Source of the DNA: Escherichia phage TM1
Reading direction: 5' to 3' (one strand)
Sequence record: MT808983.1
Length of the DNA stretch: 39,817 nucleotides
The position numbers and the translations under genes were made by a program. Below, one piece after another: positions 8,687-36,753 of this stretch; the stretch's first letter is position 1; every line of letters begins with the position of its first letter. Below the pieces are notes generated by a model. The model was not told the origin of the DNA. It made no database searches and saw nothing but the letters and a program-made list of their open reading frames with translations.

Positions 8687-9385
8687 ATGGCTAAAGAGCA
8701 ACTGAAGACTTTCACCACTCCGGTAGCTGGTATCGTTGAGCCTTACGCATGGCTGAACAAAGCAGACACCAAGTTTAACGAGCGTGGTGAGCATAAGGTT
8801 AACCTGACATTCGACCTGAGCAACCCGAAGGTCCGTAAGATGATTGATGTCTTACAGAAGATTCACGACGATGCGTATGCGAAAGCACTCGCAGACCACG
8901 AGAAGAACCCACCTCAGGTTCAGCGTGGCAAGAAGCCTATTGAACCACGAGAAGGCGACATGCCGTGGATTGAGAATGGTGACGGTACTGTTACCCTGAA
9001 GTTCAAATGCTTTGCGTCTTACCTTAAAGACGGCAAGTCCGAGCCTATCGTATTACGGTTCTACGGCACTGATGCTAAACTCATCCGTGACGTCCCGAAT
9101 ATTGGCGCTGGGTCTAAGCTGAAGGTCAAGTTTAAAGTCCTGCCGTTCAAGTGGAACGCTGCGACTGGTGCAAGCGTTAAGCTCCAGCTTGAGTCCTGCC
9201 TTCTGGTAGAGCTGAAGGAGTGGAAAGGTGATGGTGCTGGTGGTGATGGTGGCTGGGGTGATGATGAAGACCTCGGTACTGGCTACAAAGCGTCAACCGA
9301 TGGTGACTTCGGGTCTGATGACTTCGGTGACGATGGCTCCGATGGCGCTGACGACTCTAACTCTGGTGGCGATTACGACTTCTAA
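8687..9385 (+). CDS. gp2.5: Single-stranded DNA-binding protein (T7 gp2.5 homolog, 232 aa)
   Basis: MAKEQ...GDMPWIENGDGTVTLKFKC...GSKLKVKFKVLPFKWNAATGASVKLQLESCLLVEL, with an acidic C-terminal tail ending DYDF, as in T7 gp2.5. Confidence 0.92.
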   Translation: MAKEQLKTFTTPVAGIVEPYAWLNKADTKFNERGEHKVNLTFDLSNPKVRKMIDVLQKIHDDAYAKALADHEKNPPQVQRGKKPIEPREGDMPWIENGDGTVTLKFKCFASYLKDGKSEPIVLRFYGTDAKLIRDVPNIGAGSKLKVKFKVLPFKWNAATGASVKLQLESCLLVELKEWKGDGAGGDGGWGDDEDLGTGYKASTDGDFGSDDFGDDGSDGADDSNSGGDYDF

Positions 9386-9831
9386 TGAAACTTAAAGAGA
9401 AACTGGAGGTTTACTCTGAGGTTTCTCCTACTGGGTGCTGGGAGTGGCAACTCTCCCGGTTCCCTGCTGGATATGGTCGAATATCAATAGGACGTCAGAA
9501 ACAGGACTACGCTCACCGAGTTTCATACAGGGAGTACAAAGGTCCGATACCTGATGGATTGGTTGTTAGACATAAATGTGATAACCCCTGCTGCTGTAAC
9601 CCTGAGCACCTTGAATTAGGTACGCAGAAGGACAACATGAGGGACTGCATGGAGAGAGGACGAAAGTCCAACCCTCCCGTATTCAAAGGAGAAGCTAATC
9701 ATAAGACTAAGCTGACCAAGGAAAACGTAGAGTTCATCTTAGAGTCGATGCTGCCAGCTACAGAACTAGCCAAGATGTTTGGAGTCACACCAGCAGCTAT
9801 AAACTGGAGGAGACAACATGGCTGGACGTAG
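9385..9831 (+). CDS. HNH homing endonuclease (148 aa)
   Basis: H-N-H core HRVSYREY...VVRHKCDNPCCCNPEHLELGTQKDN; ATG overlaps the SSB stop (TAATG). Confidence 0.85.
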   Translation: MKLKEKLEVYSEVSPTGCWEWQLSRFPAGYGRISIGRQKQDYAHRVSYREYKGPIPDGLVVRHKCDNPCCCNPEHLELGTQKDNMRDCMERGRKSNPPVFKGEANHKTKLTKENVEFILESMLPATELAKMFGVTPAAINWRRQHGWT

Positions 9832-10270
9832 CATAAGCAGAGGACATCAAGTAGGGGCCTACCGCTCAGGACTTGAAGCAAAGAACCAAGAGTGGCTTGA
9901 GAAGAACGGCGTGAAGGCTGAATACGAGGCTTATAAAATAGGCTACGTAGTACCGTCCAGCGACCATTTCTACACGCCAGACTTTGTGTTGCCTAACGGT
10001 ATCATCGTGGAGACCAAAGGTATCTTCGATAGTGATGACCGTAAGAAGCACCTTCTGGTACGAGAACAGCACCCAGAGTTAGACATTCGGTTCGTGTTCT
10101 CAAGTTCCCGCTCCAAGTTATACAAAGGGTCTCCGACCACGTATGGCGCATGGTGCGAAAAGAACGGCTATAAGTATGCCGATAAGTTCATCCCGGTTGA
10201 GTGGCTTCGAGAGGCGACTGTACGTCTGCCTTCGGGCATACTCATCCCCAAGAAGAAAGGAGTTAAGTAA
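9818..10270 (+). CDS. gp3: Endonuclease I, Holliday-junction resolvase (T7 gp3 homolog)
   Basis: AYRSGLEAKNQEWLEKNG...YTPDFVLPNGIIVETKG...DDRKKHLLVREQHPELDIRFVFSSSRSKLYKGSPTTYG, collinear with T7 gp3. Confidence 0.92.
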   Translation: MAGRSISRGHQVGAYRSGLEAKNQEWLEKNGVKAEYEAYKIGYVVPSSDHFYTPDFVLPNGIIVETKGIFDSDDRKKHLLVREQHPELDIRFVFSSSRSKLYKGSPTTYGAWCEKNGYKYADKFIPVEWLREATVRLPSGILIPKKKGVK

Positions 10271-10725
10271 TGACTACCTGTAAAGACCTTGAAGTTGGAA
10301 CACGTTACAGATTCTCAAAGAACACCCTGCTGAATAACCCCGGATTCACTGATGCTGTTTTCGAAAAGCGAGAAGACCATAGCGTACTTGTGGAGAAGGG
10401 GTGGCATCCTGAGGATTACATCGGTGAGATTACAAGCTGGAATGGTCACGATACCTACAGTGTAGAAGTTGTTGACCAGCCTCAGGTCCTGCCAGCTTCG
10501 AGCGTACCACCTGTGACTGTGAAGCGTGAAGTCCTGACCATCGACAAGATTGGTGTAGGCCAGACGTTCATCGTCCACGGAAAGCCTGAAGAAGTTTACG
10601 TGAAGATTAGCAACTCACACGTCTTCAACCATAAGCGTCTCCAGATGCACACCACGGACGCACAACGCTTCACCCAGCACCTGAATCTGGTGGTCGTAGA
10701 ATTGGTGGTGTACAATGGTAAGTAA
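10270..10725 (+). CDS. Hypothetical protein (151 aa) between endonuclease I and lysozyme
   Basis: SD AAGGAG; start and stop overlap the neighbours; no counterpart at this position in T7. Confidence 0.6.
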   Translation: MTTCKDLEVGTRYRFSKNTLLNNPGFTDAVFEKREDHSVLVEKGWHPEDYIGEITSWNGHDTYSVEVVDQPQVLPASSVPPVTVKREVLTIDKIGVGQTFIVHGKPEEVYVKISNSHVFNHKRLQMHTTDAQRFTQHLNLVVVELVVYNGK

Positions 10726-11173
10726 GGTACAGTTCAACCCACGGTCCCGGACTGACGCTATCTTCGTTCACTGTTCGGCTACCAAGCCAGATATGGACAT
10801 CGGGGTAGAGACCATCCGTATGTGGCACAAGCAGCAAGGATGGCTGGACGTAGGCTACCACTTTATCATCAAGCGCGATGGTACTGTGGAAGAGGGTCGC
10901 CCGGTCAATGTCGTAGGGTCACATGTTAAGGACTGGAACTCAAAGTCCGTAGGCGTCTGCCTTGTAGGTGGAATCAACGCTAAGGGTCAGTTTGAAGCTA
11001 ACTTCACTCCAGCCCAGATGAACTCCCTTCGCAACAAGCTGGCTGACCTGAAGGCCTTGTATCCTCAGGCAGAAATCAAAGCACACCATGACGTAGCACC
11101 TAAGGCGTGTCCAAGTTTCGACTTGCAACGCTGGTTGACTACCAACGAACTGATCACTTCCGACAACGGTTAA
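10715..11173 (+). CDS. gp3.5: N-acetylmuramoyl-L-alanine amidase / T7 lysozyme homolog (gp3.5)
   Basis: VQFNPRSRTDAIFVHCSATKP...WLDVGYHFIIKRDGTVEEGR...AHHDVAPKACPSFDL, near-collinear with T7 lysozyme. Confidence 0.93.
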   Translation: MVSKVQFNPRSRTDAIFVHCSATKPDMDIGVETIRMWHKQQGWLDVGYHFIIKRDGTVEEGRPVNVVGSHVKDWNSKSVGVCLVGGINAKGQFEANFTPAQMNSLRNKLADLKALYPQAEIKAHHDVAPKACPSFDLQRWLTTNELITSDNG

Positions 11174-11197
11174 TAAATTCTAAAGGAGAACAACTCA

Positions 11198-11413
11198 ATG
11201 ATTAAACTTATCGAATTTCTTGGTCGTCTGGTGGTGCGTGGTTATCGTCGTGCTGCGGTACTGGAACGAAAGGTAGAAAAGAAGAATGCTGACGGTGCGA
11301 CTGATGCTGCTGCTCTGGCTGACAAGCTGACCATCGCGTCACTGGAAGCTGGCATGAAGGCACGTCAAGCTGACACCAAAGCTGACCAGTTGGCTCAGTT
11401 CTTCAAAGCCTAA
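11198..11413 (+). CDS. Small alanine-rich protein (71 aa), unknown function
   Basis: Strong SD AAAGGAGAA; its stop codon TAA lies inside the next promoter. Confidence 0.55.
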   Translation: MIKLIEFLGRLVVRGYRRAAVLERKVEKKNADGATDAAALADKLTIASLEAGMKARQADTKADQLAQFFKA

Positions 11414-11431
11414 ACTATCACCTTAGGGATG
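11408..11431 (+). promoter_or_regulatory. Phage-RNAP promoter variant (taaACTATCACcTtAGGGat)
   Basis: Two substitutions in the -4/-3 region; upstream of the tRNA-like element and the primase-helicase gene; probably weaker. Confidence 0.45.
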
Positions 11432-11476
11432 GGACCATGAGTCCTTTCCCTTTGTTCGCATTTGTGATTAAGAAAT

Positions 11477-11555
11477 GTCTCCATAGCTCAAACGGTAGAG
11501 CGGCGGGTCATGATGGCCTATTGCGATTAGGGTTCGAATCCCCGTGGAGACGCCA
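11477..11555 (+). tRNA. tRNA-like element (possible degenerate tRNA, candidate anticodon CAT; anticodon arm ambiguous)
   Basis: Perfect 7-bp acceptor stem (gtctcca/tggagac), T8, D-arm gctc-aaacggta-gagc with GG, T-loop GGTTCGAATCC, discriminator G and encoded CCA; but 26 nt between the D- and T-arms with imperfect anticodon stem pairing. Confidence 0.4.
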
Positions 11556-11566
11556 ATAAGGAGTGA

Positions 11567-13270
<1,704 letters not shown>

Positions 13271-13281
13271 GGAGGAGTACA

Positions 13282-13446
13282 TTGCTAAGAAAACTTAAAG
13301 CTCGCTACCATCGGTTCATGTACAAATGGTGGAGTGATGAAGCAACCTGCCTGTCCAACATTCTGGGAGACCAGAGGTTCTACTCTAAGGCATGGAAGAA
13401 AGCTAACCGGAAGTTTATGTATCACTTCTTGCGTACAGACTTCTAG
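13282..13446 (+). CDS. Small basic protein (about 54 aa), unknown function
   Basis: TTG start 7 nt after AGGAGG (alternative GTG at 13249, as in the ORF track); lies between the helicase and DNA polymerase genes. Confidence 0.35.
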   Translation: MLRKLKARYHRFMYKWWSDEATCLSNILGDQRFYSKAWKKANRKFMYHFLRTDF

Positions 13447-13450
13447 GTCT

Positions 13451-13498
13451 AGACTCAAGGTCATTCACATCGATTGGCCTTTATGATTAGACTAAACG
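13451..13498 (+). ncRNA. Conserved leader hairpin, candidate RNase III site (R4.7 position, upstream of DNA polymerase)
   Basis: agactcaaggtcattcacatcgattggcctttatgattagact; second copy of the conserved element. Confidence 0.5.
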
Positions 13499-13510
13499 CG
13501 GAGGATTAAC

Positions 13511-15679
13511 ATGGACTTAAGTAACGTATATGGGTCTGACATCGAGACCAACGGTCTCCTTGATACAGTCTCCCAGTTCCACTGCGGGGTCCTGATTAAC
13601 GCCGAGTCGAATGAGACCCTTAAGTATGGGGTAGCTCCGATGGTCGGTATCGTCGGTGGCTTCAAAGAGTATGTGCATAAAGTGGAAGAGATTGCCGCAT
13701 CGCCTGATGGTATGCTTGTCTTCCATAATGGTATCAACTACGACGTCCCGGCTATAGACAAGCTGAAGCGTCTGTACTTTGGGAAACGCTTTAACTTCCC
13801 GAAACACAAGATGATTGATACCTTGGTGCTGGGCCGCTTGATGTATCCAAACATTAAGTTCTCAGACATGGGCGCGGTGAAAGCTGGTCGTCTGCCACCT
13901 AATATGATGGGACGTCAGTCTCTTGAGGCTTGGGGCTATCGTCTCGGTGAGATGAAAGGTGAGTACAAACACGATTACATTGCCAAGTGCAAGGCTGAAG
14001 GTATCGAATATAAGGCTGGGGACGAATGGTTGTTCCCGTCTCAGGAGATGCTGGACTATAACGTTCAAGACGTTGTGGTCACGCTGGCGTTGTTCAAGAA
14101 GTTCCTGACTGACAAGTATTACTTCCAGTCTGAACAGTTCGCTTTCGACCAGATTTATGCGTTGCGTCTGGAACATGATGCTGCGTGGACCTGCGCGAAG
14201 ATGGAACGTAACGGCTATCCGATGAACACCGAGATGGTCGAAGGCTTATATCGTGAACTCACCGTCAAACGTGCAGAGCTGCTGGACAAGCTGCGTTCGA
14301 CTTTCGGTAGCTGGTATGCACCGAAGGGAGGCAAGGAGTTCTTCAAGCATCCACGTACAGGTAAGGACCTTCCGAAGTATCCGCGAGTCGTGTATCCTAA
14401 GGTCGGTGGCATCTTTAAGAAGCCGAAGAACAAAGCTCAACGCTTAGGTCTGGAGCCTTGCGAGTTCGACTCACGAGACACGATGGAGGGAGCACCGTTC
14501 ACACCTATCACTTACATTGAGTTCAATCCAGGGAGCGGAGACCACTTAGCGAAAGTCTTGATGGAGCGTGGCTGGGAGCCTGTGGACTTCACTGACACCG
14601 GGAAACCTGTAGTCGATGACGAGACGTTAGAGCACGTTAAGTTGCCAGACGCAGAGGCTCAGGCTTGCGTAGAGCTGGTTCGTGAGTATCTGGTAGTCCA
14701 GAAGCGCATCGGTCAGGCGGCTGAAGGTAAGAACGCATGGTTGAAACTTGTAGGTCCAGACGGACGTATGCACGGTTCAATCAACCCATGCGGGGCAGTA
14801 ACCGGACGTGCGACTCATAGTTCACCAAACATGGCTCAGGTCCCTGCTAACGGTGCTCCGTATGGTGAGACTTGCCGTGGTGCTTTCGGTGCAGCATGGA
14901 ACAAGAAGGACGGTAAGCCAGACCCTTGGATTCAAGTGGGTGTGGATGCCTCAGGTCTTGAGCTTCGTTGTCTGGGGAACCGAGCAGCTCCGTTTGATGG
15001 TGGTGCCTATGCGAAGACTGTGGTCGAAGGTGACATCCACTGGGCCAACGCAGTCAACGCTGGGTTAGCACCTAACGTCCCACGCGATAAGTCGAACCAC
15101 GACCATGATGCTTTCCGTAACAACGCTAAGACGTTCATCTATGCGTTCCTGTATGGTGCAGGGGCCGCTAAGATTGGACTGATAGTCGGAGGCGGTAAGA
15201 AGGAAGGTTCAGCTCTCATGAAGAAATTCATTGAGGGTACACCAGCCATCAAAGACCTCAGGGAAGCTGTGAGTAATACGTTAATATCAGACTCTAAGTG
15301 GGTGGACGGAGAGAACATCGTCAAGTGGAAACGCCGTTGGTTGCGTGGACTTGACGGTCGCCGTATCCACATCCGGTCGCCACACTCAGCACTTAACGCC
15401 TTACTTCAAGGCGATGGTGCGGTAGTCTGTAAAACGTGGTTCACTTGGCTTGAGAGGAACCTAGAAGCTAAAGGCTACGTTCACGGCTGGGATGGTGACT
15501 TTGCGATTATGGCTTTTGTCCATGACGAAGTTCAGGTTGCCGCAAGGACTATGGAAATAGCTGAGGACATAGTTAGGGTGGCGCAGTCTACAATGCGAGA
15601 GGTTGGAGAGTTCTACCAGTTCAAGTGTGTGCTTGACACCGAGGGGAAGATAGGACCTACGTGGCGCGAATGTCACTAA
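13511..15679 (+). CDS. gp5: DNA polymerase (T7 gp5 homolog, 722 aa)
   Basis: N-terminal exonuclease motif SDIETNGLL, FHCGV, LVFHNGINYDVPA, LEAWGYRLGEMKGEYK and C-terminal polymerase motifs, collinear with T7 gp5. Confidence 0.97.
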   Translation: MDLSNVYGSDIETNGLLDTVSQFHCGVLINAESNETLKYGVAPMVGIVGGFKEYVHKVEEIAASPDGMLVFHNGINYDVPAIDKLKRLYFGKRFNFPKHKMIDTLVLGRLMYPNIKFSDMGAVKAGRLPPNMMGRQSLEAWGYRLGEMKGEYKHDYIAKCKAEGIEYKAGDEWLFPSQEMLDYNVQDVVVTLALFKKFLTDKYYFQSEQFAFDQIYALRLEHDAAWTCAKMERNGYPMNTEMVEGLYRELTVKRAELLDKLRSTFGSWYAPKGGKEFFKHPRTGKDLPKYPRVVYPKVGGIFKKPKNKAQRLGLEPCEFDSRDTMEGAPFTPITYIEFNPGSGDHLAKVLMERGWEPVDFTDTGKPVVDDETLEHVKLPDAEAQACVELVREYLVVQKRIGQAAEGKNAWLKLVGPDGRMHGSINPCGAVTGRATHSSPNMAQVPANGAPYGETCRGAFGAAWNKKDGKPDPWIQVGVDASGLELRCLGNRAAPFDGGAYAKTVVEGDIHWANAVNAGLAPNVPRDKSNHDHDAFRNNAKTFIYAFLYGAGAAKIGLIVGGGKKEGSALMKKFIEGTPAIKDLREAVSNTLISDSKWVDGENIVKWKRRWLRGLDGRRIHIRSPHSALNALLQGDGAVVCKTWFTWLERNLEAKGYVHGWDGDFAIMAFVHDEVQVAARTMEIAEDIVRVAQSTMREVGEFYQFKCVLDTEGKIGPTWRECH

Positions 15680-15688
15680 GGAGGTAAG

Positions 15689-16003
15689 ATGGGAGGTGTA
15701 GCAACCTTACGCTTCCATAAGATGCCTACTGGATGTATCGTCTGTGTATCTCACAAGAGGAACCAAGATGGATACTTTCGGTACACGGTAGGATCTGCCC
15801 GTAAGCCAGGACGCAAGGCGTTTATGTTTCACCGATGGGTGTGGGAACAGAAGCGCGGGCCTATACCAGATGGCTATGAGATAGACCATTTGTGTTTGAA
15901 TCGTGGGTGCTGTAACGTAGAGCATCTGCAATGTATTCCAAAGCGTGAGCACGTCATCAAGACGAACCGTGAGCGCAAACTTGTCAAGAAGGAGTGTCAC
16001 TAA
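15689..16003 (+). CDS. HNH homing endonuclease (104 aa)
   Basis: FHRWVWEQ...IDHLCLNRGCCNVEHLQCIPKREH (H-N-H motif); SD AAGGAGG; occupies the T7 gene 5.3 position. Confidence 0.85.
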   Translation: MGGVATLRFHKMPTGCIVCVSHKRNQDGYFRYTVGSARKPGRKAFMFHRWVWEQKRGPIPDGYEIDHLCLNRGCCNVEHLQCIPKREHVIKTNRERKLVKKECH

Positions 16004-16320
16004 TGGCTATGACAAAACGTATGCGAGTTTCGTTCTCGCTGTGTACTGTATTATCAACTAAAGACATCGAGGGCCTCAATGGGGCTCTCTGCAAGCTGAG
16101 TCGTAAGGTTCTGAACGGAGAGAAGACCACTGGCTTCGAGCGTAAGATGGTAGAGGTAGGTGTTACAGAGGGTATGGAAGCTGTGGTAGAGCTTGTCTTA
16201 AAGAAAGGCATTGTTGACGGGCTGAAAGAAGATCTTACGTCCTACTCAAATAAGCCCAGCTTCGGAGATTTCAGAGTGGAGTTCAAGCTATCTCCTGCTA
16301 CTGTACGGGAGGTGTTCTAA
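16003..16320 (+). CDS. gp5.5-like protein (105 aa)
   Basis: Starts MAMTKR, as recalled for T7 gp5.5; position after DNA polymerase and HNH; ATG overlaps the upstream stop. Confidence 0.55.
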   Translation: MAMTKRMRVSFSLCTVLSTKDIEGLNGALCKLSRKVLNGEKTTGFERKMVEVGVTEGMEAVVELVLKKGIVDGLKEDLTSYSNKPSFGDFRVEFKLSPATVREVF

Positions 16321-16439
16321 TGGCTATCAAGCGTATCAAGAATAAGAAGGAGTGCGACCACTCTTTCGTAGTTAAAGGTGTCATTGGTTTTGCTGCCGAG
16401 AGTGTATTAAATGTGGATATTTTGAGGTTCAAGCAATGA
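16320..16439 (+). CDS. Small ORF (39 aa), unknown
   Basis: SD GGGAGGTG 7 nt upstream; ATG overlaps the previous stop (TAATG); very short. Confidence 0.3.
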   Translation: MAIKRIKNKKECDHSFVVKGVIGFAAESVLNVDILRFKQ

Positions 16440-16645
16440 GTGAATACTTACGGGTCCTAGCGGCCCTTAAGTCCTGCCCGAAGACATTTCAGTCCAACTA
16501 TGTGCGCAACAACGCTGCACTTGTGGCTGAGGCTGCGAGTCGTGGACATCTAAGCTGCCTGTCTATGGATGGGCGTAACAACGGTGCGTGGGAGATTACC
16601 GCTGCTGGCACCAAGTTCCTGAACCAACACGGAGGCTGTCTATGA
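16436..16645 (+). CDS. gp5.7: gp5.7-like protein (69 aa)
   Basis: MSEYLRVLAALKSCPKTFQSNYVRNNAALVAEAASRGHLSC...GAWEITAAGTKFL, near-identical in pattern to recalled T7 gp5.7. Confidence 0.85.
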   Translation: MSEYLRVLAALKSCPKTFQSNYVRNNAALVAEAASRGHLSCLSMDGRNNGAWEITAAGTKFLNQHGGCL

Positions 16646-16770
16646 GCCTGAAAGGTCTATTTGCATCTAGGTTAAAGTGTAAAAAGTGTGGACAACATCC
16701 TATGCTGGAGGGATATGCTGGCAGCTCATACTGGTGGTGTCTCAAATGCAACAAGGAGGTGAAAGAATGA
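16642..16770 (+). CDS. Small zinc-ribbon-like protein (42 aa, CxxC...CxxC)
   Basis: MSLKGLFASRLKCKKCGQHPMLEGYAGSSYWWCLKCNKEVKE; SD GGAGG; overlaps its neighbours by 4 nt at each end. Confidence 0.45.
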   Translation: MSLKGLFASRLKCKKCGQHPMLEGYAGSSYWWCLKCNKEVKE

Positions 16771-17636: not shown

Positions 17637-17710
17637 TCTACTGGGCCGGACTTCTGGCCCTTTACTGCATGTACAAGTGGTTCGGGTCGAACAACCGTCC
17701 TAAACACTGA
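17618..17710 (+). CDS. gp6.3-like small membrane peptide (30 aa)
   Basis: GTG start 7 nt after AAGGAGG; VIYWAGLLALYCMYKW resembles the hydrophobic T7 gp6.3 as recalled. Confidence 0.35.
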   Translation: MDTIHVIYWAGLLALYCMYKWFGSNNRPKH

Positions 17711-17762
17711 GTCTAACCGATAGTCATATCCTATCAATCCAACAGTCATCCATAGGTGAAAC

Positions 17763-17786
17763 ACTAAACTATCACTATAGGGACTT
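17763..17786 (+). promoter_or_regulatory. Phage-RNAP promoter (taaACTATCACTATAGGGac), phi6.5 position
   Basis: Family consensus; predicted +1 G at 17780. Confidence 0.8.
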
Positions 17787-18119: not shown

Positions 18120-18133
18120 CTGTAGGAGGGACT

Positions 18134-22927: not shown

Positions 22928-23494
22928 ATGGCTCAATACATTCCACTGAATGCTAACGATGACTTAGACGCCATCAACGATATGTTAGCAGCTATCGGTG
23001 AACCAGCAGTCCTACAGCTTGACGAGGGGAACGCTGACGTCTCGAACGCTCAACGTATCCTGCATCGTGTCAATCGTCAGGTCCAAGCTAAAGGCTGGAA
23101 CTTTAACATCAACGAAGCTGCTGTCCTGACACCTGATGTCCAAGACAATAGGATTCGATTCTTGCCGTCATACCTTCGTGTAATGACCGCTGGGGCCACC
23201 AGCTACTACAGCAACATGGGTGGATACCTGTACGACCTGTCCACTCAGTCAACCACTTTCACCGACCCCATCACGGTAGAGCTTGTGGAGATGAAGCCAT
23301 TCTCCGAGATGCCTGTGGTCTTCAGGGACTACATCGTCACTAAAGCTAGCCGTGAGTTCAACGCTAAGTTCTTCGGTAGCCCAGAGTCAGAGCTATACCT
23401 TCGTGAGCAGGAAGCAGAACTCTATCAGCAGGTTATGGAGTACGAGATGGACACTGGTCGCTACAACATGATGTCTGACATCGGGAGGGACTAA
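22928..23494 (+). CDS. gp11: Tail tubular protein A (T7 gp11 homolog)
   Basis: ANAQRILHRVNRQVQAKGWNFNINE...YIVTKASREFNAKFFGSPE...MEYEMDTGRYNMM, collinear with T7 gp11. Confidence 0.9.
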   Translation: MAQYIPLNANDDLDAINDMLAAIGEPAVLQLDEGNADVSNAQRILHRVNRQVQAKGWNFNINEAAVLTPDVQDNRIRFLPSYLRVMTAGATSYYSNMGGYLYDLSTQSTTFTDPITVELVEMKPFSEMPVVFRDYIVTKASREFNAKFFGSPESELYLREQEAELYQQVMEYEMDTGRYNMMSDIGRD

Positions 23495-23721
23495 TGGCTA
23501 GTCACAACCTGAAGATTCACCGCCAGCACTTTGGTCCGGTACAGCTAGGTCTAAAGACAGCAGAGCTGAGACTTAACGACCGGGACTTTAAGGTTGGCGA
23601 TTGGCTTATCCTGAATGAGTGGGACAACGGGTATACCGGACAACAGGTAGCGCGTAAGGTTGTCCACATTGCTGACGTTGGTGACATCTCTGAAGGATAC
23701 GTCCTAATGAGTATGATTTAA
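23494..23721 (+). CDS. ASCH/DUF3850-like small protein (75 aa) inserted between the tail tubular genes
   Basis: LKIHRQHFGPVQLGLKTAELRLNDRDFKVGDWLILNEWD...YTG...EGYVLMSMI matches the recalled DUF3850 (ASCH-like) pattern; ATG overlaps the gp11 stop. T7 has no gene here. Confidence 0.65.
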   Translation: MASHNLKIHRQHFGPVQLGLKTAELRLNDRDFKVGDWLILNEWDNGYTGQQVARKVVHIADVGDISEGYVLMSMI

Positions 23722-29511: not shown

Positions 29512-29515
29512 CATA

Positions 29516-32500
29516 ATGGCGACTCGTGGTATTCGCAATAACAATCCGGGTAACATCCGGGTAAGTAAGGACCAATGGGAAGGAATGACTGGAGATGATG
29601 GCGCATTCGTCACCTTCGATAGTCCAGAGTCTGGCGTCCGAGCTTTAGGTAAAAACCTGCTGTCCTACGGTCGCCAAGGTTATGATTCCATCGAGAAGAT
29701 TATCAACAGATGGGCACCTCCTAACGAGAACGACACTCAGGCTTATATTAACTCAGTGGTGGCTGCGACTGGTATTCCAGCTACCCAGAGTCTCGACCTC
29801 TCGAACCCGGACACCCTGTCTTCTCTGGCACAAGCTATCAGCTTCCATGAGACAGGCTCCCGGTACGACCCTGAAGTCTATCAGAAGGGAGTCGCACGAG
29901 CACTCAACGGCATTAGCCCAAAGACTCCACCAGTAAGCGCTAACGTATTTGACTCACTCACGGAAGGACTCAAGGCTAAACCTAAAGTAGCTCTGGGCGA
30001 GAATCTTCCGACCGCTGCTGGTCTAAACATTGAGGGTCAAGCACCTGAAGCTCCCAACGAATCGTTCGGTGAGATGTTCTATAAGGCTACTGGCGAGACC
30101 ATGCAGGAACGAGAGGACCGCTCTACGTGGTTCGGTTTCGGTGCGGCTACAGAAGCTGAAGTGAAGAACTCTATGGTCGGCGTGGCTATCCGAGCTGGCC
30201 AGACTGAGGATTCACTGGATGTCATTGGCGATGTGTTCAACCCAACCAGATGGAACAACCATAAGTGGTCTCGTGAGGAGCTGGACCAGATTCGTAACGC
30301 TGGGGTTTTGCCTCAGTATTACGGAGTCATTACTGGTGGTTCTCCTCAGAATCTGACAGAGCTGATCAACTTGGCGCTGGAGAACCAGAAGTTAGACGCT
30401 GAGAAGGCCAAGGCTGGTACTGGCGCTCAGTTAGCCGCTGGTGTGATTGGAGCTGGAGTTGACCCTCTGACTTACGTTCCTATTGCTGGACAGGTAGGTA
30501 AAGGTGGTAAGCTGGTAAACAAGATGTTCACCGTGGCTGCGCAATCTGGAGCGTTGGCTGGTGTGTCTGAGATGTCCCGTACCTCAGTGGCTGGTGGCGA
30601 TGCTCATGTGGCTGAAGCTATCCTTGGTGGTGCTCTCTTCGGTGGTGGTATGACTGCTATTGCTGATGGACTAGGCAGAGCCTTAGGCCGAAACACTAAT
30701 GAGTTTGCTGGTCCAGCCACACGTCTGGAAGCCCGTGAGACTGCACGTAATGTTGATGGTCAGGACCTGTCTCGTCTACCTATTCAGGAAGGTGAGCAGA
30801 CCTTTAGTCACCAAGGCGTTAAGTTCGCTGACGTTCCGAACGAGCCTGGTAGTGTACGACTTGAAGATGGTTCAATCCTGATTGGTGAGAACCCTCTGAA
30901 CCCTAAGACACGTAAAGTCTTTGACGAAGTGATTGAGCCTGAACGTGCCGCTGCTGGTGTGAACCTTGGTGGGCTGACTGAGATTGGCCTGAAGCTGCTT
31001 CGGTCCGAGAACCCTGAGATTCGTGGAGTCGCTGCTGACTTAGTGCGTTCACCAACTGGTATGCAGTCAGGGGCCACAGGTAAAATAGGGACCACTGCGT
31101 CAGACGTATTCGAGAGACTTCGTGCTGTGGACCATCGGTTCTACAACGACATCGACGATGCAGTTAGAGAGGCACTCAAGGACCCATACTTCCAAACAGC
31201 ATTCTGGCGAGACTCTGGCGCATTCCGTCAGGACATCTATCAGCGTGTGTCTATGGCTATCGAAGACGGTAGTGGGAACCTGAAGGCTGAACTGACTCCG
31301 GGAGAACTGAAAGTCTATGACCTGCTGAAGAACCAGTTTGACGCCAAGCGTGAGATGATGGAGAACCCATCTATGTTCGGGCGTCCAGACGCTCAGTCTA
31401 TCTTTCCGGGTAGCCGCTTCAAGGGAACCTACGTCCCGCATGTGTATAGTAACCAGATGAAGGAGCTGTACATCAAGGAGCTTGGGAGTCCAGAGGCGTT
31501 GCAGGAGGCAATCAAGAAGTCATGGCTTACCAGCTATGCGTCTCGACCTGAAGTAAAGAAACGTGTGGACGAGGCACTATTAGAGGCGGACCCTACGTTG
31601 ACTCCAGAGGGACTTGCGGCTGCGGTCGATAAGTACGCCAACGATAAGGCTTACGGTATCTCCCATACAGAGCAGTTCGAGCGTTCATCCGTAATGGAAG
31701 AGAACATCAACGGTCTGGTAGGTCTGGAGAACAACAGCTTCCTTGAGGCGCGCAACCTGTTCGATAGCGATATGTCAATCGTCCTGCCTAACGGTCAGAC
31801 CTTCAGTGTCAATAACCTACGTGAGTGGGATATGGACAAGATTGTCCCGGCCTACAACCGTCGAGTTAATGGTGATATTGCTATCATGGCTGGTACAGGA
31901 AAAACCACGAAGGACATGAAGGACTTGGTTGAGACCATGATGAACAAGGCTGGGGATGACGGTAAGTTGAAAGGTGAGGTATCTACCTTACGTGACACCT
32001 TGAAGATTCTCACTGGTCGTGCTCGACGTGATGGTGCTGATGATGCAGCACTCAATACCGTGCTACGCACAATGACAGACCTATCGTTCTTCGCTAAGAA
32101 TGCCTACATGGGTGTTCAGAACTTAACGGAGATTGGTGGTATGCTGGCCCGTGGTAACGTCCGTGCAATGCTGCATGGGGTCCCGATTTTCCGTGACCTA
32201 GCCTTCCGTAACAAGAAGGTAGGGGCCTCAGAGATTAAGGACCTGCACAATGTTATATTCGGTAAGGAACTGGATGACTCAATCCGTCCGTCTAAACAGG
32301 ATGTCATTGACCGTCTGCGGTCTTACAGTGACCTCGGTCGTGGTACGGCTACAGCTCTGGGGACTGCCAAGTATTACACTGGTGAACTTGCAGTACGCTC
32401 TCCGCTCACTAAAGTCCTCAACGGTACGACCAACTACCTGTTAGATGCTGGACGTCAAGGATTCCTGTCTGACATCGTGGAACATAGTCTGACTGGTAGT

Positions 32501-33403
32501 AAGCGTCGGTTCGATGACCGCTGGCTTAAGACCGCTGGTATCTCCGAAGAGCAGTGGAAGGGCATTAAGTCATTAATCCGTGAGTCAGTGACTCGTGGTC
32601 CAGACGGGAAGTATACCATCAAGGATAAGAAGGCGTTCAGTCAGGACCCAAGGGCTATGGACCTGTGGCGTATGGGTGACACCATCGCTGACGAAACGTT
32701 ACTCCGTCCTCATAAGCTGTCCAACATGGACGCCAAGGCTTATAGTCCCCTCGCTAAGACTGTCCTTCAGTTTAAGAACTTCGTCATCAAGTCCATCAAC
32801 GGGCGAACCATGCGAACCTTCTACAACGCCACGAAGAACAACCGAGCGATGGACGCTGCACTGTCTACTGTGATGTCTATGGGTCTGGCTGGTATCTACT
32901 ACATGGCTCAGGCGCACGTCAAGGCTTACGCTATGCAGGACGGTCGAGACAGAGATTACCTCAAGCAAGCTCTGGACCCGACGATGATTGGCTATGCGGC
33001 TCTGTCCCGTAGCTCACATCTGGGTGGCCCACTTGGGGTCGCTAACATTCTGGGCGGCATCGCTGGGTATGAGGACACTAAGATGCTCCGCTCGTCTATC
33101 CTCCCTCGTTCACCTACAGAGAAGCCTGAACGTGCCATCTCGTATGGTGCGGCTACAAGTGACCCTGTGATGAATGTCGTCGGTAACTTCTTGGAGCAGG
33201 TTCCAGCTTTCGGCTATGCTGCTAACGTTGGTGCTTCGGCTTACAACTTGGCTGGCTACCTCAAGGCTGATACTCGTGTCAACGAGCGAGACTACATGAC
33301 CGGGATGTATAACACGTTCCGTGAACTGGTCCCGAACGACCCGATTACCCAGAAGTTGCTGCTTGGAACGTTTGAGGAGCATGGTATCCACATCAAGGAC
33401 TAA
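29516..33403 (+). CDS. gp16: Internal virion (ejection) protein D (T7 gp16 homolog, 1295 aa)
   Basis: Middle and C-terminal regions collinear with T7 gp16 (FGFGAATEAEVKNSMVGVAIRAG, KGTYVPHVY, AYGISHTEQF, NNSFLEARNLFDSD, TNYLLDAGRQG, AMDLWRMGD...LRPHK); the N-terminal about 120 aa diverge. Confidence 0.92.
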   Translation: MATRGIRNNNPGNIRVSKDQWEGMTGDDGAFVTFDSPESGVRALGKNLLSYGRQGYDSIEKIINRWAPPNENDTQAYINSVVAATGIPATQSLDLSNPDTLSSLAQAISFHETGSRYDPEVYQKGVARALNGISPKTPPVSANVFDSLTEGLKAKPKVALGENLPTAAGLNIEGQAPEAPNESFGEMFYKATGETMQEREDRSTWFGFGAATEAEVKNSMVGVAIRAGQTEDSLDVIGDVFNPTRWNNHKWSREELDQIRNAGVLPQYYGVITGGSPQNLTELINLALENQKLDAEKAKAGTGAQLAAGVIGAGVDPLTYVPIAGQVGKGGKLVNKMFTVAAQSGALAGVSEMSRTSVAGGDAHVAEAILGGALFGGGMTAIADGLGRALGRNTNEFAGPATRLEARETARNVDGQDLSRLPIQEGEQTFSHQGVKFADVPNEPGSVRLEDGSILIGENPLNPKTRKVFDEVIEPERAAAGVNLGGLTEIGLKLLRSENPEIRGVAADLVRSPTGMQSGATGKIGTTASDVFERLRAVDHRFYNDIDDAVREALKDPYFQTAFWRDSGAFRQDIYQRVSMAIEDGSGNLKAELTPGELKVYDLLKNQFDAKREMMENPSMFGRPDAQSIFPGSRFKGTYVPHVYSNQMKELYIKELGSPEALQEAIKKSWLTSYASRPEVKKRVDEALLEADPTLTPEGLAAAVDKYANDKAYGISHTEQFERSSVMEENINGLVGLENNSFLEARNLFDSDMSIVLPNGQTFSVNNLREWDMDKIVPAYNRRVNGDIAIMAGTGKTTKDMKDLVETMMNKAGDDGKLKGEVSTLRDTLKILTGRARRDGADDAALNTVLRTMTDLSFFAKNAYMGVQNLTEIGGMLARGNVRAMLHGVPIFRDLAFRNKKVGASEIKDLHNVIFGKELDDSIRPSKQDVIDRLRSYSDLGRGTATALGTAKYYTGELAVRSPLTKVLNGTTNYLLDAGRQGFLSDIVEHSLTGSKRRFDDRWLKTAGISEEQWKGIKSLIRESVTRGPDGKYTIKDKKAFSQDPRAMDLWRMGDTIADETLLRPHKLSNMDAKAYSPLAKTVLQFKNFVIKSINGRTMRTFYNATKNNRAMDAALSTVMSMGLAGIYYMAQAHVKAYAMQDGRDRDYLKQALDPTMIGYAALSRSSHLGGPLGVANILGGIAGYEDTKMLRSSILPRSPTEKPERAISYGAATSDPVMNVVGNFLEQVPAFGYAANVGASAYNLAGYLKADTRVNERDYMTGMYNTFRELVPNDPITQKLLLGTFEEHGIHIKD

Positions 33404-33422
33404 ACTATCACTATAGGAAACT
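33399..33422 (+). promoter_or_regulatory. Phage-RNAP promoter (taaACTATCACTATAGGaaa), phi17 position
   Basis: Family consensus; the gp16 stop codon TAA lies at -17 to -15. Confidence 0.8.
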
Positions 33423-33468
33423 GGAGGCGCTACCATAGGTCTCCCTTTAATTCATAACAGGAGGCATA

Positions 33469-35772
33469 ATGTCCACGATTACACAATTCCCTTCAGGAAA
33501 CACTCAGTACAGGATTGAGTTCGACTACCTAGCCAGAACGTTTGTTGTTGTTACGCTGGTGAATAGCTCTAACCCTACCCTGAACCGTGTACTGGAAGTT
33601 GGTCGAGATTACCGATTCCTTAATCCAACGATGATTGAGATGTTGGTTGACCAATCAGGTTTCGACATCGTTCGTATTCACCGTCAGACTGGAACTGACT
33701 TAGTGGTAGACTTCAGGAATGGCTCAGTGTTGACAGCTAGTGACCTGACCAATGCAGAGCTTCAGGCTATCCATATTGCAGAAGAAGGTCGAGACCAAAC
33801 TGTTGACTTAGCGAAGGAATATGCCGATGCTGCTGGTAGCTCTGCTGGCAACGCTAAGGATAGCGAGGACGAAGCACGACGACTCGCTGCGAGTATCAAG
33901 GCAGCTGGTCTAATTGGCTATATTACCCGTCGCTCCTTCGAGAAAGGCTTCAACGTTACAACATGGAACGAGGTCCTGCTATGGGAAGAGGATGGTGGTT
34001 ATTACCGCTGGGATGGTACGCTACCTAAAGAAGTTCCTGCTGGTTCAACCCCTTCGACAACTGGTGGCGTTGGTCTGGGTGCATGGGTGAGTGTTGGTGA
34101 CGCCTCTTTGCGTTCAAATCTTATTAGTGACAATTCAACTAATGGAGATGCACTGATAACCGTCAAGCAGCCATTTGCTAATTCCACGCCAAGAACGCAG
34201 CATGATAAAAACTCGGACATCATAAATATCCGTGATTTTGGTGCTGTTGGTGACTGGGACCCAGTCACAGACACCGGAACTGACAGCACACAAGCACTTA
34301 TTAACGCGGTTAATGCCGCCGTTTCGTTAGGAGGGGCTGAAATTGTTGTCCCTGAGGGGGTGTTCTGTACTACAAAGCCGTGGTATATACCAAGCGGCAT
34401 CGTTGTCAGAGGTAGTGGGTATAATTCTGTTATTTACAATCATCAGGTTTCTGGTTCAGTTTTCCCGCAAACTAACTGCATTCACGTTGGATATAGCACC
34501 GAGTGGGGAAACAGCGGTGAGCCAATGCCGACGGCCCCTGATGCAAAAATGGCTGAAATTCTGGCAAATAATTTCAGTAACATTACAACAAGGAATTCTC
34601 GTGTAACTAATATCCGCGTAATGAATAAGGGGTTTGGTCTTGGTATTTGGTTCATGAATGCTATGGATTGCTCTTGCGACAATATATGGGCTACTAATAC
34701 TACCACACCAATTAACATAGCCAATGATAACCCCTCGGCAGAAATGGCGTGCAAAAATATATCCGTTGATAATATATTTCAAGATGACGGTACGTTAGGC
34801 GAATGGTACGACCTGGCTTTCTTAGGTTCAGCGCTGGACTGTTCTTTATCTCGTCTATACAATAACCCGAACACAAAAAGTAAATTGGCAGAAATGATTG
34901 CTGTCAACGGTGCTCGTCGTTGCAAACTGTCAAAACTATCCCTTTGCGGTAATGAGGACGGTGTGGACCTGCAAATCGCCACCGGGGTGCTTATTTCTGG
35001 TTCATCTACAGGGAACTCTGTAACTAACTCAACATTCTCTAAGATGTCCAATGGGGTGAGTATCACCGGCACTGGCGGCAACACAGTAAAAGATTGTCGA
35101 GGCGAAAACATTTACACGACAGTATATCTTAACTCACCGAAGAACAAGATTTCCGGATTATCTGGTATTGATGTTGTTAACGACATTAGAGGTAATGTAG
35201 ACGCAATCAAAAATGACATAAATAATTGTAATATAAATTCCGTTAATATTTTCGATGTAAACCCTCCAGCTATGTATAATAGATTCAGAGATAACTCAAA
35301 AGATGATTCTATTCTTTTTAATAACTACAATAGCTATGCTGGGCTTCGTGCGAGAAAGATAGCAATGTTCCCCGCCGACGCTGCCATGCTCGCGTCGGAT
35401 AGAGAAGCAACGACAAATAACCTTGCGCGCATAACCAGAAATTCTAACGGAATATTTTCGTTATATTACAAAATACCTAATAACGTTAAGCAATTAACTA
35501 ATGTTACAGTTTACGGATACGGCGCACAATCCGGTGAAGCTGTAGACATAAGCATTGTTGGCATTGACTCCGATAACAACATAAATGGATTCCCAACATT
35601 TCAGTCACTAGGCACAAAAACTACAACTTCCACCGCCGATTTTGCTTTTGTATTCGGACCAACTAACCCTTTTTATGCTGCGGGTAGTTATTATGTGAAA
35701 GTAACGGTGACAATAGGTAATACTGCGACACAAATAAGGAGTGTTATGCTTGAATGTCTGTGTGATGACTAA
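33469..35772 (+). CDS. gp17: Tail fibre / tailspike (gp17 homolog, 767 aa) with T7-like N-terminal adaptor and a predicted beta-helix depolymerase-like C-terminal domain
   Basis: N-terminus (FDYLARTFVVVTL...DLVVDFRNGSVLTASDL...IHIAEEGRD) parallels the T7 gp17 tail-attachment domain; from about residue 240, INIRDFGAVGDWD...TDDT...ALINAVNAA is a pectate-lyase-3/beta-helix-type start followed by N/S/T-rich repeats; the DNA turns AT-rich from about 34100. Confidence 0.9.
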   Translation: MSTITQFPSGNTQYRIEFDYLARTFVVVTLVNSSNPTLNRVLEVGRDYRFLNPTMIEMLVDQSGFDIVRIHRQTGTDLVVDFRNGSVLTASDLTNAELQAIHIAEEGRDQTVDLAKEYADAAGSSAGNAKDSEDEARRLAASIKAAGLIGYITRRSFEKGFNVTTWNEVLLWEEDGGYYRWDGTLPKEVPAGSTPSTTGGVGLGAWVSVGDASLRSNLISDNSTNGDALITVKQPFANSTPRTQHDKNSDIINIRDFGAVGDWDPVTDTGTDSTQALINAVNAAVSLGGAEIVVPEGVFCTTKPWYIPSGIVVRGSGYNSVIYNHQVSGSVFPQTNCIHVGYSTEWGNSGEPMPTAPDAKMAEILANNFSNITTRNSRVTNIRVMNKGFGLGIWFMNAMDCSCDNIWATNTTTPINIANDNPSAEMACKNISVDNIFQDDGTLGEWYDLAFLGSALDCSLSRLYNNPNTKSKLAEMIAVNGARRCKLSKLSLCGNEDGVDLQIATGVLISGSSTGNSVTNSTFSKMSNGVSITGTGGNTVKDCRGENIYTTVYLNSPKNKISGLSGIDVVNDIRGNVDAIKNDINNCNINSVNIFDVNPPAMYNRFRDNSKDDSILFNNYNSYAGLRARKIAMFPADAAMLASDREATTNNLARITRNSNGIFSLYYKIPNNVKQLTNVTVYGYGAQSGEAVDISIVGIDSDNNINGFPTFQSLGTKTTTSTADFAFVFGPTNPFYAAGSYYVKVTVTIGNTATQIRSVMLECLCDD

Positions 35773-35834
35773 AGCAGACTAACGTATGGTAACAACTTTG
35801 GGTCACGGACGACCCGCTTTAAACTGGAGGTTTT

Positions 35835-36029
35835 ATGATTGAGTTAGACTTCAAGAATGAGGTCCTTAAAGCCTCTCCTATCGTCGGGACCGCTGCGGCT
35901 GATGGTGCCAGTCGGTTCTTCTTCGGACTCACACTGAACGAATGGTTCTACGTTGCAGCTATCGCGTACACCGTTGTCCAGATTGGTGTGCTGGTCTACA
36001 AAACGATTAAAGGAGGCGGTAAAACATGA
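35835..36029 (+). CDS. gp17.5: Class II holin (T7 gp17.5 homolog, 64 aa)
   Basis: FFGLTLNEWFYVAAIAYTVVQIG matches T7 holin (FFGLSLNEWFYVAAIAYTVVQIG). Confidence 0.9.
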   Translation: MIELDFKNEVLKASPIVGTAAADGASRFFFGLTLNEWFYVAAIAYTVVQIGVLVYKTIKGGGKT

Positions 36030-36289
36030 CGCAGATGGACTTAGAGAAGTTCCTCTTGATGCTGGATACTGAACGTGCTCGACTCATGCTGCAAGACCTG
36101 CGGGATGACTCTAAGCGTTCACCTCAGCTCTACAACGCCATTGAGAAGCTACTGGCTCGTCACAACTTTGTGTTAAGCAAGGTGTCTGTGGACGAGAAGA
36201 CGCTCGCTGATATGGAGGCCCTGAACGCAGAGTACGATAAGGTGCTTTCAGAGACTGAGGATAATGACACCGGTTATGGTATTCAATAA
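36026..36289 (+). CDS. gp18: Terminase small subunit (T7 gp18 homolog, 87 aa)
   Basis: LMLDTERA...SKRSPQLYNAIEKLLARHNF parallels T7 gp18 (EMLDTAMA...RRSPQLYNAINKLLDRHKF). Confidence 0.85.
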   Translation: MTQMDLEKFLLMLDTERARLMLQDLRDDSKRSPQLYNAIEKLLARHNFVLSKVSVDEKTLADMEALNAEYDKVLSETEDNDTGYGIQ

Positions 36290-36290
36290 G

Positions 36291-36345
36291 TGTTAGACTC
36301 AAGGTCATTACTATATGTAGTGGCCTTTATGGTTAACACTAAGGA
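36291..36345 (+). ncRNA. Conserved leader hairpin, candidate RNase III site (R18.5 position)
   Basis: tgttagactcaaggtcattactatatgtagtggcctttatggttaacac; third copy of the conserved element. Confidence 0.5.
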
Positions 36346-36351
36346 GGTTAC

Positions 36352-36753
36352 ATGAAAGATTCATACATAAGTGGCGGTTACTGGAAGGTTACTCGTAATG
36401 GTAAGGTTCATGGAGTTCATAGATTACTATGGGAGGAAGCCTACGGTCCTATCCCAGATGGTTACGTCATAGACCACATTGATAGGAATCCTATGAATAA
36501 CGAACTGTCAAACCTTAGGTGCATACCTAAAGGCGCAAACAAGGCTAACACGGTATCCTCTAGGGAACTGCCTAAAGGCGTATACTCTAGGTTTGCTAAA
36601 CGTCAAGGTGTAACTGTGTACTATGGTGACATTAGGATGGGAGGTAAGAAAGAAACTCATGCGCCTACTGAGAATCTGAAGGAAGTCGTGGAATGGGCTA
36701 AGTCAACTCATAGCAGAATGCTAAAGGAGACATATGGTATTTCAAATGTTTAA
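36352..36753 (+). CDS. HNH homing endonuclease (133 aa) inserted between gene 18 and the spanin genes
   Basis: VHRLLWEEAYGPIPDGYVIDHIDRNPMNNELSNLRCIPKGAN (H-N-H/N motif); SD AAGGAGG; locally AT-rich. Confidence 0.85.
   Translation: MKDSYISGGYWKVTRNGKVHGVHRLLWEEAYGPIPDGYVIDHIDRNPMNNELSNLRCIPKGANKANTVSSRELPKGVYSRFAKRQGVTVYYGDIRMGGKKETHAPTENLKEVVEWAKSTHSRMLKETYGISNV

Follow-up and report, generated by a model that had tools for sequence, protein, structure and literature searches.

HNH_3 endonuclease genes, probably homing elements, at three polymorphic gene junctions of the K1F-like Escherichia phage TM1

The genome of Escherichia phage TM1 (MT808983.1) contains three open reading frames (ORFs) with an HNH nuclease motif, here called HNH1, HNH2 and HNH3. 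HNH1 follows gene 2.5, which encodes the single-stranded-DNA-binding protein (SSB); HNH2 follows gene 5, the DNA polymerase gene; and HNH3 lies between gene 18, encoding the small terminase subunit, and the spanin genes. The window analysed, the whole stretch of 39,817 nt, is a complete linear genome of the K1F-like type (Kayfunavirus, Studiervirinae, T7 supergroup). Its ends are T7-type direct terminal repeats of ~179-181 nt, and its genes stand in T7 order, all on the + strand. Many Kayfunaviruses in GenBank are ~93-96% identical to TM1 over most of its length, and none is identical. Taken together, the evidence indicates that HNH1-3 are very probably free-standing homing endonuclease genes (HEGs) of the HNH_3 family, lodged between essential genes of the phage.

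The HNH genes and their products

The positions of the three genes and of the features around them are given in Table 1. A first-pass annotation, made from the sequence alone, had placed the HNH ORFs at exactly these coordinates and had named the same neighbours; both points hold, with all three ORFs on the + strand and all three matching Pfam HNH_3 (PF13392). The scores of HNH1, HNH2 and HNH3 are 62.7, 67.9 and 65.2 bits, roughly 40 bits higher than the gathering score of 24.8 bits, and each product also matches several PHROG HNH families. A custom hidden Markov model (HMM) was built from HNH1-3, T7 gp2.8, gp3.8 and gp7.7, T3 gp5.3 and the K1F intron ORF, and was scanned on all six-frame stop-to-stop segments of TM1. 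It recovers HNH1-3 (E 1e-36 to 1e-53) and, beyond them, no segment below E 0.04. Further HNH or PD-(D/E)XK genes, including the T7 gp5.3 type, were searched for in TM1 and none was found. In a PDB sequence search HNH3 matches only I-HmuI (E 9e-4) and HNH1 reaches it only at E 0.58; the matches of HNH2, to T-cell receptor beta and vascular endothelial growth factor, were disregarded as spurious.

Table 1. Features at the three HNH loci of TM1 and at the adjoining spanin genes
Feature	Position	Strand	Evidence or remark
Gene 2.5 (ssDNA-binding protein)	8687..9385	+	95-100% nt identity to gp2.5 of Pipis, pO91, K1F
HNH1, 148-aa HNH_3 endonuclease, T7 gp2.8/gp7.7 family	9385..9831	+	Pfam E 2.5e-17
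Inserted segment relative to HNH-free relatives	9388..9850	+	blastn break-points against Pipis, K1F, YZ1; alignment
Gene 3 (endonuclease I)	9818..10270	+	annotation of relatives; tblastn
Diverged gene 3 tract, codons 12-63	9851..10006	+	allele tracks HNH occupancy
Gene 5 (DNA polymerase), uninterrupted	13511..15679	+	comparison with K1F; no intron RNA by Rfam
Diverged 3' tract of gene 5, allele A	15420..15679	+	spans motif C (VHDE) and K1F intron insertion site
Left 12-nt imperfect direct repeat GAATGTCACTAA	15668..15679	+	gene 5 terminus, E-C-H-stop; read from sequence
HNH2, 104-aa HNH_3 endonuclease, T3 gp5.3 orthologue	15689..16003	+	Pfam E 5.7e-19
Right direct repeat copy GAGTGTCACTAA	15992..16003	+	comparison with 8 empty alleles and K1F
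Gene 5.5 (H-NS inhibitor)	16003..16320	+	PHROG 1452; sliding identity
Gene 18 (small terminase subunit)	36026..36289	+	annotation of K1F, YZ1, BUCT788
RNase III-type hairpin	36289..36340	+	minimum free energy -23.4 kcal/mol, z -4.25, 0/200 shuffles as stable
Inserted segment relative to HNH3-free relatives	36343..36741	+	comparison with K1F and 22 of 23 IMG/VR contigs
HNH3, 133-aa HNH_3 endonuclease, I-HmuI-like H-N-N, T7 gp3.8 family	36352..36753	+	Pfam E 4.1e-18
Rz i-spanin (18.5)	36734..37186	+	start inside HNH3 3' end; TGA at codon 30
Rz1 (o-spanin), embedded in Rz, frame open	~36837-37112	+	position approximate

The catalytic H-N-H residues, whose loss the first-pass annotation had singled out as the point to look for, are retained on alignment in all three products. 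D41-H42, N54 and N63 of HNH3 align with D74-H75, N87 and N96 of I-HmuI, whose residue roles were reportedly assigned by Shen et al. in 2004. The corresponding positions are kept at H62, N72/H74 and N84 in HNH1 and at D66-H67, N76/H78 and H87 in HNH2. Thus the general-base His, the structural Asn/His and the metal-binding Asn/His that mark membership of HNH_3 are present throughout. An Arg precedes the catalytic His of HNH1, where I-HmuI has a metal-binding Asp; because T7 gp2.8 and gp7.7 carry Leu and Met at that position, the Arg is regarded as a family trait. Pairwise dN/dS (nonsynonymous to synonymous substitution rates) is 0.06-0.21 for HNH1, 0.04-0.20 for HNH2 and 0.09-0.14 for HNH3, and the three genes are therefore under purifying selection. 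HNH1-3 are genuine, intact HNH_3 genes of the beta-beta-alpha-metal type, and their products are predicted nucleases.

On these data it appears quite improbable that any of the ORFs is a dead relic, meaning a HEG that has become fixed, has lost its cutting activity and is heading for decay. HNH2 is short, has no counterpart to the helix-turn-helix (HTH) tail found in the intron-borne paralogue and ends in four codons that duplicate the gene 5 end, yet its length of 101-104 aa is conserved from T3 to Kayfunavirus. The Arg of HNH1 in place of the metal-binding Asp might likewise point to a loss of function, but it falls at the Arg/Leu/Met position common to the family. All catalytic positions are kept, and the low dN/dS is accompanied by many synonymous changes, both of which speak against a relic.

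The HNH1 start codon overlaps the SSB stop codon by 1 nt (TAATG), and HNH2 starts 9 nt past the polymerase stop, with a Shine-Dalgarno sequence (AAGGAGGT) in the gap. The tight coupling to the upstream gene that had been suggested for all three applies to these two, and does not apply to HNH3, which is separated from gene 18 by 62 nt that fold into the RNase III-type hairpin. This hairpin ends at the start of the HNH3 insert and belongs to a repeat family of four members in TM1, the others lying at ~1950, 6116 and 13444 (repeat families D5 and D11). We take its position to be that of the R18.5 RNase III site on the T7 map of Dunn and Studier 1983. HNH3 has a strong Shine-Dalgarno sequence of its own (AAGGAGGT) and is coupled to the downstream gene Rz, because the Rz start codon lies 20 nt inside the HNH3 3' end. 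All 10-11 copies of the phage-RNA-polymerase promoter CTAAACTATCACTATAGG in TM1 are located away from the HNH genes, and sigma-70 and terminator scans around HNH3 gave only background level.

Occupancy and alleles of the three slots

Related Kayfunavirus contigs were retrieved from IMG/VR via the flanking genes, 14 for slot 1 (gene 2.5/gene 3) and 23 each for slot 2 (gene 5/gene 5.5) and slot 3 (gene 18/Rz). In otherwise collinear relatives, each of the three slots is polymorphic for presence or absence of the HNH gene. Comparison with the HNH-free relatives, as the first-pass annotation had proposed, allowed the exact boundaries of the insert to be mapped at every slot.

At slot 1 the insert takes the place of ~30 nt that include the first ~10 codons of gene 3, and the 3' end of HNH1 contains the gene 3 start together with its Shine-Dalgarno sequence. 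HNH1 is 98% identical to the product encoded by SHAK9454, 80% to that of pO91, 41% to T7 gp7.7 and 38% to T7 gp2.8 (E 6e-28). SHAK9454 is an UNVERIFIED record, of which the DNA alone was used because its annotation is mis-registered with its sequence. Eleven of the 14 contigs are empty at this slot, one has an HNH1-type gene (80% identity) and two have a gene of another HNH lineage (41%). At a threshold of at least 80% identity HNH1 is found in 2 GenBank records only.

A sharp change in sequence accompanies the insert. By sliding-window identity the SSB gene upstream is 85-100% identical in all relatives, and over the first ~190 nt of gene 3 identity drops to 45-80% before returning to 95-100%. 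Three discrete alleles of this gene 3 tract exist. One is common to all 13 empty-site genomes (95-100% nt identity), and the six genomes with either HNH lineage in slot 1 have the two others, which are 63-74% identical to the empty allele; the amino-acid changes are concentrated at gp3 residues ~37-51. The tract is a candidate target or co-conversion region for HNH1. In ZG49 (contig L143, 2456-2520) the first 15 HNH1 codons are fused in frame to gene 3 after a deletion of ~390 nt, and the remnant still has the gene 3 allele of TM1. To judge from the sequence, this is a natural footprint of HEG loss, by which the N-terminus of endonuclease I, an essential nuclease in recombination, is altered.

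Between genes 3 and 3.5 a 151-aa ORF (10270-10725), w­ithout a Pfam match, is highly mosaic among relatives, in many of which the first ~210 nt are either missing or cannot be aligned. It forms an additional recombination patch with no associated nuclease gene.

At slot 2, positions 15680-16003 form a clean insertion between the imperfect direct repeats GAATGTCACTAA and GAGTGTCACTAA. The right copy restores the junction at which gene 5 natively ends and gene 5.5 starts in empty-site phages (AAGGAGTGTCACTAATGGCTATG; ...KECH* with TAATG), and HNH2 takes its four C-terminal residues, KECH, from it. HNH2 is 87% identical to T3 gp5.3 over 101 residues (E 4e-71) and 48% identical to the HNH protein encoded in the K1F intron (E 5e-33), its paralogue. 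Two other identities were considered for it. Homology to T7 gp5.3 was ruled out, that protein being of the PD-(D/E)XK type, and so was an origin as a group I intron-encoded ORF: gene 5 of TM1 is a single uninterrupted ORF of 722 codons with HNH2 past its stop codon, and an Rfam search of TM1 for intron RNA families finds none.

Eleven of the 23 contigs are empty at slot 2, four have an HNH2-type gene (86-97% identity), three a PD-(D/E)XK gene, four a 53-aa ORF and one the K1F-type intron with an HNH gene in it. HNH2-type genes of at least 80% identity occur in ~112 GenBank records. The PD-(D/E)XK gene of L268, L276 and L277 (~2951-3320) is a 369-nt cassette homologous to T7 gp5.3 (PDDEXK_5, E 2e-10) for which no ATG start was found; the gene 5 3' allele of these contigs is common to some HNH2 carriers.

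The end of gene 5 is also divided into discrete alleles. The identity of the gene to other Kayfunaviruses falls at ~15410 from 90-100% to 55-80% and stays low to the gene end. Within the last 246 nt three alleles, A, B and C, can be distinguished. Allele A, that of TM1, is shared among the 23 contigs only with L258 and L278, which carry HNH2 of 96-97% identity, and the block of allele A plus HNH2 is contiguous in ~21 GenBank records. Allele B occurs in the carriers of 86-89% HNH2, in the three PD-(D/E)XK carriers and in one other contig, and allele C in all 11 empty contigs and three of those with the 53-aa ORF. The eight genomes with a nuclease in slot 2 are all non-C. The alleles differ in the codons right around the site of the K1F group I intron with its HNH ORF, which is equivalent to TM1 ~15513, just upstream of the VHDE motif C, and the substitutions cluster within ~10 nt of that site. 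On the other side, the affinity of gene 5.5 switches at the right border of HNH2: here TM1 resembles L260 and L270 (90-95%), not L258 and L278, with which it shares HNH2.

The tie between occupancy and this three-allele structure is suggestive and may reflect target-site immunity. A further reading, which is offered tentatively, is that the last ~260 nt of gene 5, around motif C, may be a battleground shared by three mobile nucleases, namely HNH2, the PD-(D/E)XK nuclease and the HNH enzyme of the K1F intron. The three alleles would then confer resistance or susceptibility, and the rare allele A would be an escape allele travelling with its own HNH2 variant. If this is true, Kayfunavirus would offer a natural case of the "collaborative homing" route to mobile introns, with several players.

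At slot 3 the insert replaces ~30 nt including the original Rz start, so that Rz begins with MVFQMF, not MLEFL. HNH3 is 97.7% identical to its counterpart in PDP351P3, 95% in BUCT788 and 92% in YZ1 (YP_009798560). Twenty-two of the 23 contigs are empty, and the remaining one, L236, has an unrelated 160-aa ORF without a Pfam match; HNH3 itself is thus found in 0 of the 23, and at an identity of at least 90% in only ~4 GenBank records. Degraded copies occur elsewhere. In Yersinia phage fPS-54-ocr (Helsettvirus) the HNH3 homologue is split by a frameshift at residue ~75, and in Pectobacterium phage PcCB251 (Berlinvirus) all that is left of HNH3 is its last 41 codons, from which Rz takes its start. 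The C-terminal half of HNH3 has no Pfam match. An AlphaFold model from the single sequence has a mean pLDDT (predicted local distance difference test) score of 63.5, and a Foldseek search with it against PDB returned nothing below E 0.98; because the model is poor, the AP2-like look of the C-terminal half is an impression by eye only.

The position of HNH3 between gene 18 and, past Rz, the large terminase gene might suggest a terminase-associated packaging HNH protein, similar to HK97 gp74 and needed for DNA maturation. This role is effectively refuted, because close relatives whose terminase genes are nearly identical lack HNH3 (K1F and 23/23 IMG/VR contigs, gp18 90-98% identical) and because the ends of TM1 are T7-type direct terminal repeats, not cos. 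Moreover, the family is Pfam HNH_3 of the T7 gp3.8/I-HmuI type, and frameshifted and remnant copies exist in viable phages.

Several relatives carry another HNH gene, 36-51% identical to HNH3, downstream of Rz and ahead of the large terminase gene; TM1 has nothing in that slot. Its carriers are L281 (BUCT788; 2881-3264), L282 (fPS-54-ocr; 2340-2735) and L228, L229 and L234 (~3380-3730).

The spanin gene Rz next to HNH3 is interrupted in TM1, and the first-pass annotation had left it open whether the two facts are related. The adjacency and the interruption are both seen in the sequence. Codon 30 of Rz (36821-36823) is an in-frame TGA in TM1 and TGG in every relative examined, and a second unique change, N28S, lies 6 nt upstream (36815-36823 being codons 28-30). 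TM1 Rz is otherwise collinear with and ~93% identical (137/149 aligned residues) to the Rz of K1F and YZ1. A causal role of the HNH3 insertion was rejected: the substitution lies 68-70 nt downstream of the HNH3 stop codon, and the nonsense codon is considered unrelated to HNH3 because the HNH3 carriers examined (YZ1, BUCT788) have an intact Rz. The TGA could be a private point mutation, possibly from laboratory passage, or a sequencing error. If tRNA-Trp reads through the UGA, the wild-type residue would be brought back. Phages with defective spanins are classically reported not to lyse their hosts when divalent cations are present.

Probable homing, recombination and meaning for TM1

Several lines of evidence support the earlier description of the three genes as selfish insertions: the polymorphism of the slots, the purifying selection, and the discordance between HEG and flank identity across genera. 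HNH2 and its T3 counterpart are far more alike than the polymerases (54%) and gp5.5 proteins (31%) beside them, and HNH3 is 77% identical to a gene in the same slot of Klebsiella phage 175014 (Przondovirus), whose gp18 is only 49% identical. This discordance is seen for HNH2 and HNH3 only, the nearest out-of-genus relatives of HNH1 being ~40-50% identical. Moreover, the stages of a homing cycle can be recognised among relatives: sites without an HEG, the deletion in ZG49, the frameshifted copy of fPS-54-ocr and the 41-residue remnant of PcCB251.

The genes may alternatively have been domesticated, that is, kept for a benefit such as the exclusion of competing phages or satellites or the degradation of host DNA, with their spread as a by-product. 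The low dN/dS does reflect selection on the HNH proteins, but purifying selection is equally expected of an actively homing element. The abundance of HNH2-type genes in GenBank and the repeated filling of slot 2 by nucleases of two unrelated folds would fit usefulness at that place, whereas each HNH gene is missing from many viable close relatives, and footprints of decay and deletion exist. Furthermore, marker exclusion is the homing mechanism itself, so that domestication overlaps the homing interpretation and does not replace it. As a separate explanation, domestication is considered unlikely.

In the proposed homing mechanism, each enzyme would nick or cut, in a mixed infection, the HEG-less allele near its own gene. 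HNH1 would probably act on the opening ~190 nt of gene 3, HNH2 on the last ~260 nt of gene 5, where motif C and the intron insertion site lie, and HNH3 on the junction of gp18 and Rz. The phage recombination machinery, of which gp2.5, gp3 and gp6 are present in TM1, would then repair the break from the HEG-carrying genome, copying the HEG and its resistant flanking tract. Each HEG would be harmless to its phage, being co-transcribed with its neighbours. For translation HNH1 would use the coupling of the upstream gene, and HNH2 and HNH3 would bring their own Shine-Dalgarno sequences; the gene that follows each HEG (gene 3, gene 5.5 or Rz) takes both its start codon and its ribosome-binding site from the 3' end of the HEG. 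It is the association of alleles with occupancy that points to the targets of HNH1 and HNH2, and from it we infer that HNH2 may cut at the K1F intron insertion site. A direct experiment in T7-like phages is reported to have been made by Bonocora and Shub in 2009. Reviews (PMC3984707, PMC2790892, PMC2988022) deal with "collaborative homing", in which a free-standing endonuclease cleaves where an intron inserts, and with the co-conversion of flanks; the pattern seen here agrees with the homing of free-standing HEGs that they describe for T4 and for collaborative homing. The 48% identity of HNH2 to the intron-borne enzyme fits the published idea of a convergence of free-standing and intron-borne enzymes on one conserved site.

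A number of observations weigh against this interpretation. Because the diverged tracts adjoin the HEGs, linkage alone could produce the association of occupancy with allele. LS3 and CHRF_10023.2 in GenBank match allele A-like gene 5 ends with no contiguous HNH2 match, and several GenBank phages match only the HNH2 part of the query. Allele B of gene 5 is common to carriers of 86-89% HNH2 and of the unrelated PD-(D/E)XK gene; the tract may therefore mark a general recombination boundary, not enzyme-specific immunity. HNH2 is without the C-terminal HTH of the intron-borne paralogue, which is a difficulty for site specificity. Finally, HNH3 has no diverged flank, the sequence on both sides being 95-100% identical in carriers and non-carriers.

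The insertions had also been taken to mark recombination hot spots. The sharp mosaic boundaries in genes 3 and 5 bear this out for HNH1 and HNH2, where the term seems a fair one to judge from the alignments, and the uniform flanks of HNH3 do not. A genome-wide comparison of TM1 with K1F and YZ1 shows some eight or nine mosaic patches between 8.4 and 39 kb, the gene 3 and gene 5 tracts among them, and HEGs are therefore not the sole breakpoints.

HNH1-3 are new alleles of known elements, the families and slots of which (T7 2.8, T3 5.3, YZ1/BUCT788) are already annotated, and the current understanding of T7-like phages is unchanged by them. For annotation, the three should be treated as accessory mobile genes outside the replication and packaging machinery. 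The jumps in the sequence of genes 3 and 5 are recombination mosaics and should therefore be excluded from phylogenies and primer design. For phage engineering and phage cocktails, it matters that K1F-like phages infecting one cell together can undergo marker exclusion and gene conversion driven by such HEGs. The comparison provides three testable target regions, and the gene 5/gene 5.5 slot, with two unrelated nuclease folds and discrete polymerase alleles, offers a compact natural system for the study of HEG competition.

Other segments in which TM1 differs from K1F and YZ1 were observed apart from the HNH genes. A 159-aa ORF (5634-6113) with the "phage T3 gene 1.05" domain (Pfam E 2e-24; PHROG 8103, function unknown) is missing at the equivalent position in K1F and YZ1. 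A tRNA-like gene (11477-11555; tRNA-Met with anticodon CAT by ARAGORN, Rfam tRNA 36.5 bits) stands upstream of the primase/helicase gene, with a phage promoter (~11410) on its other side; relative to K1F and YZ1 it is an insertion of ~84 nt. Among 182 related GenBank records ~32 match at least 80% of a 261-nt query that spans the gene, which in some of them is labelled tRNA-OTHER or tRNA-Thr. Between genes 5.7 and 6, a 42-aa zinc-ribbon-like ORF with two CxxC pairs (16642-16770; MSLKGLFASRLKCKKCGQ...CLKCNKEVKE) fills a 132-nt segment that is missing from K1F, and YZ1 has a different, 149-aa ORF there. A 75-aa ORF with a DUF3850/ASCH domain (23494-23721; Pfam E 1.6e-19) is an insert that separates tail genes 11 and 12, which directly abut in K1F and YZ1.

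Comparison with known HNH elements

HNH1 is most similar in arrangement to T7 gene 2.8, which likewise lies between genes 2.5 and 3 and overlaps the gene 3 start with its 3' end. It shares with T7 gp2.8 and gp7.7 the core H-x-C-D-N-P-x-C-C-N-P-E-H-L and a C-terminal HTH-like tail. At 38-41% identity (E 1e-25 to 1e-28), however, it is much diverged from them and represents a distinct allele. The Kayfunavirus slot is polymorphic and in some genomes holds the second HNH lineage, only 41% identical to HNH1.

HNH2 resembles T3 gp5.3, and also phiYeO3-12 gp5.3, in its position directly after the gene 5 stop and in a similar Shine-Dalgarno sequence and start context. The backbone of TM1 belongs to another genus, as the polymerase and gp5.5 identities given above indicate. 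HNH2 also ends in the duplicated gene 5 terminus and overlaps the gene 5.5 start, whereas T3 gp5.3 does neither. A published study (PMC4925675) treats gp5.3 as a mobile HEG, present in some T3-like phages and absent from others, and documents that HEGs of the gp5.3 and gp3.8 types vary in presence across T3/T7-like phages. The HNH gene of the K1F gene 5 intron is associated with the same gene as HNH2, and its intron site falls inside the diverged tract linked to HNH2. In contrast to that gene, HNH2 is free-standing, lies downstream of an uninterrupted gene 5 and has no C-terminal HTH. I-TslI is cited in the literature as a nicking intron homing endonuclease.

HNH3 is 34% identical to T7 gp3.8 (E 9e-15), but its slot is gp18/Rz and that of T7 is 3.5/4. 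With I-HmuI (PDB 1U3E), to residues 36-109 of which it aligns, HNH3 shares the D-H...N...N pattern and the N-terminal fold signature, although I-HmuI is intron-encoded and comes from a Bacillus phage. The closest counterparts are the HNH gene of YZ1 and the "homing endonuclease" of BUCT788, which are orthologues of HNH3 in the identical slot with the same 20-nt Rz overlap; they differ from the TM1 locus in that their Rz is intact, whereas that of TM1 has the TGA at codon 30.

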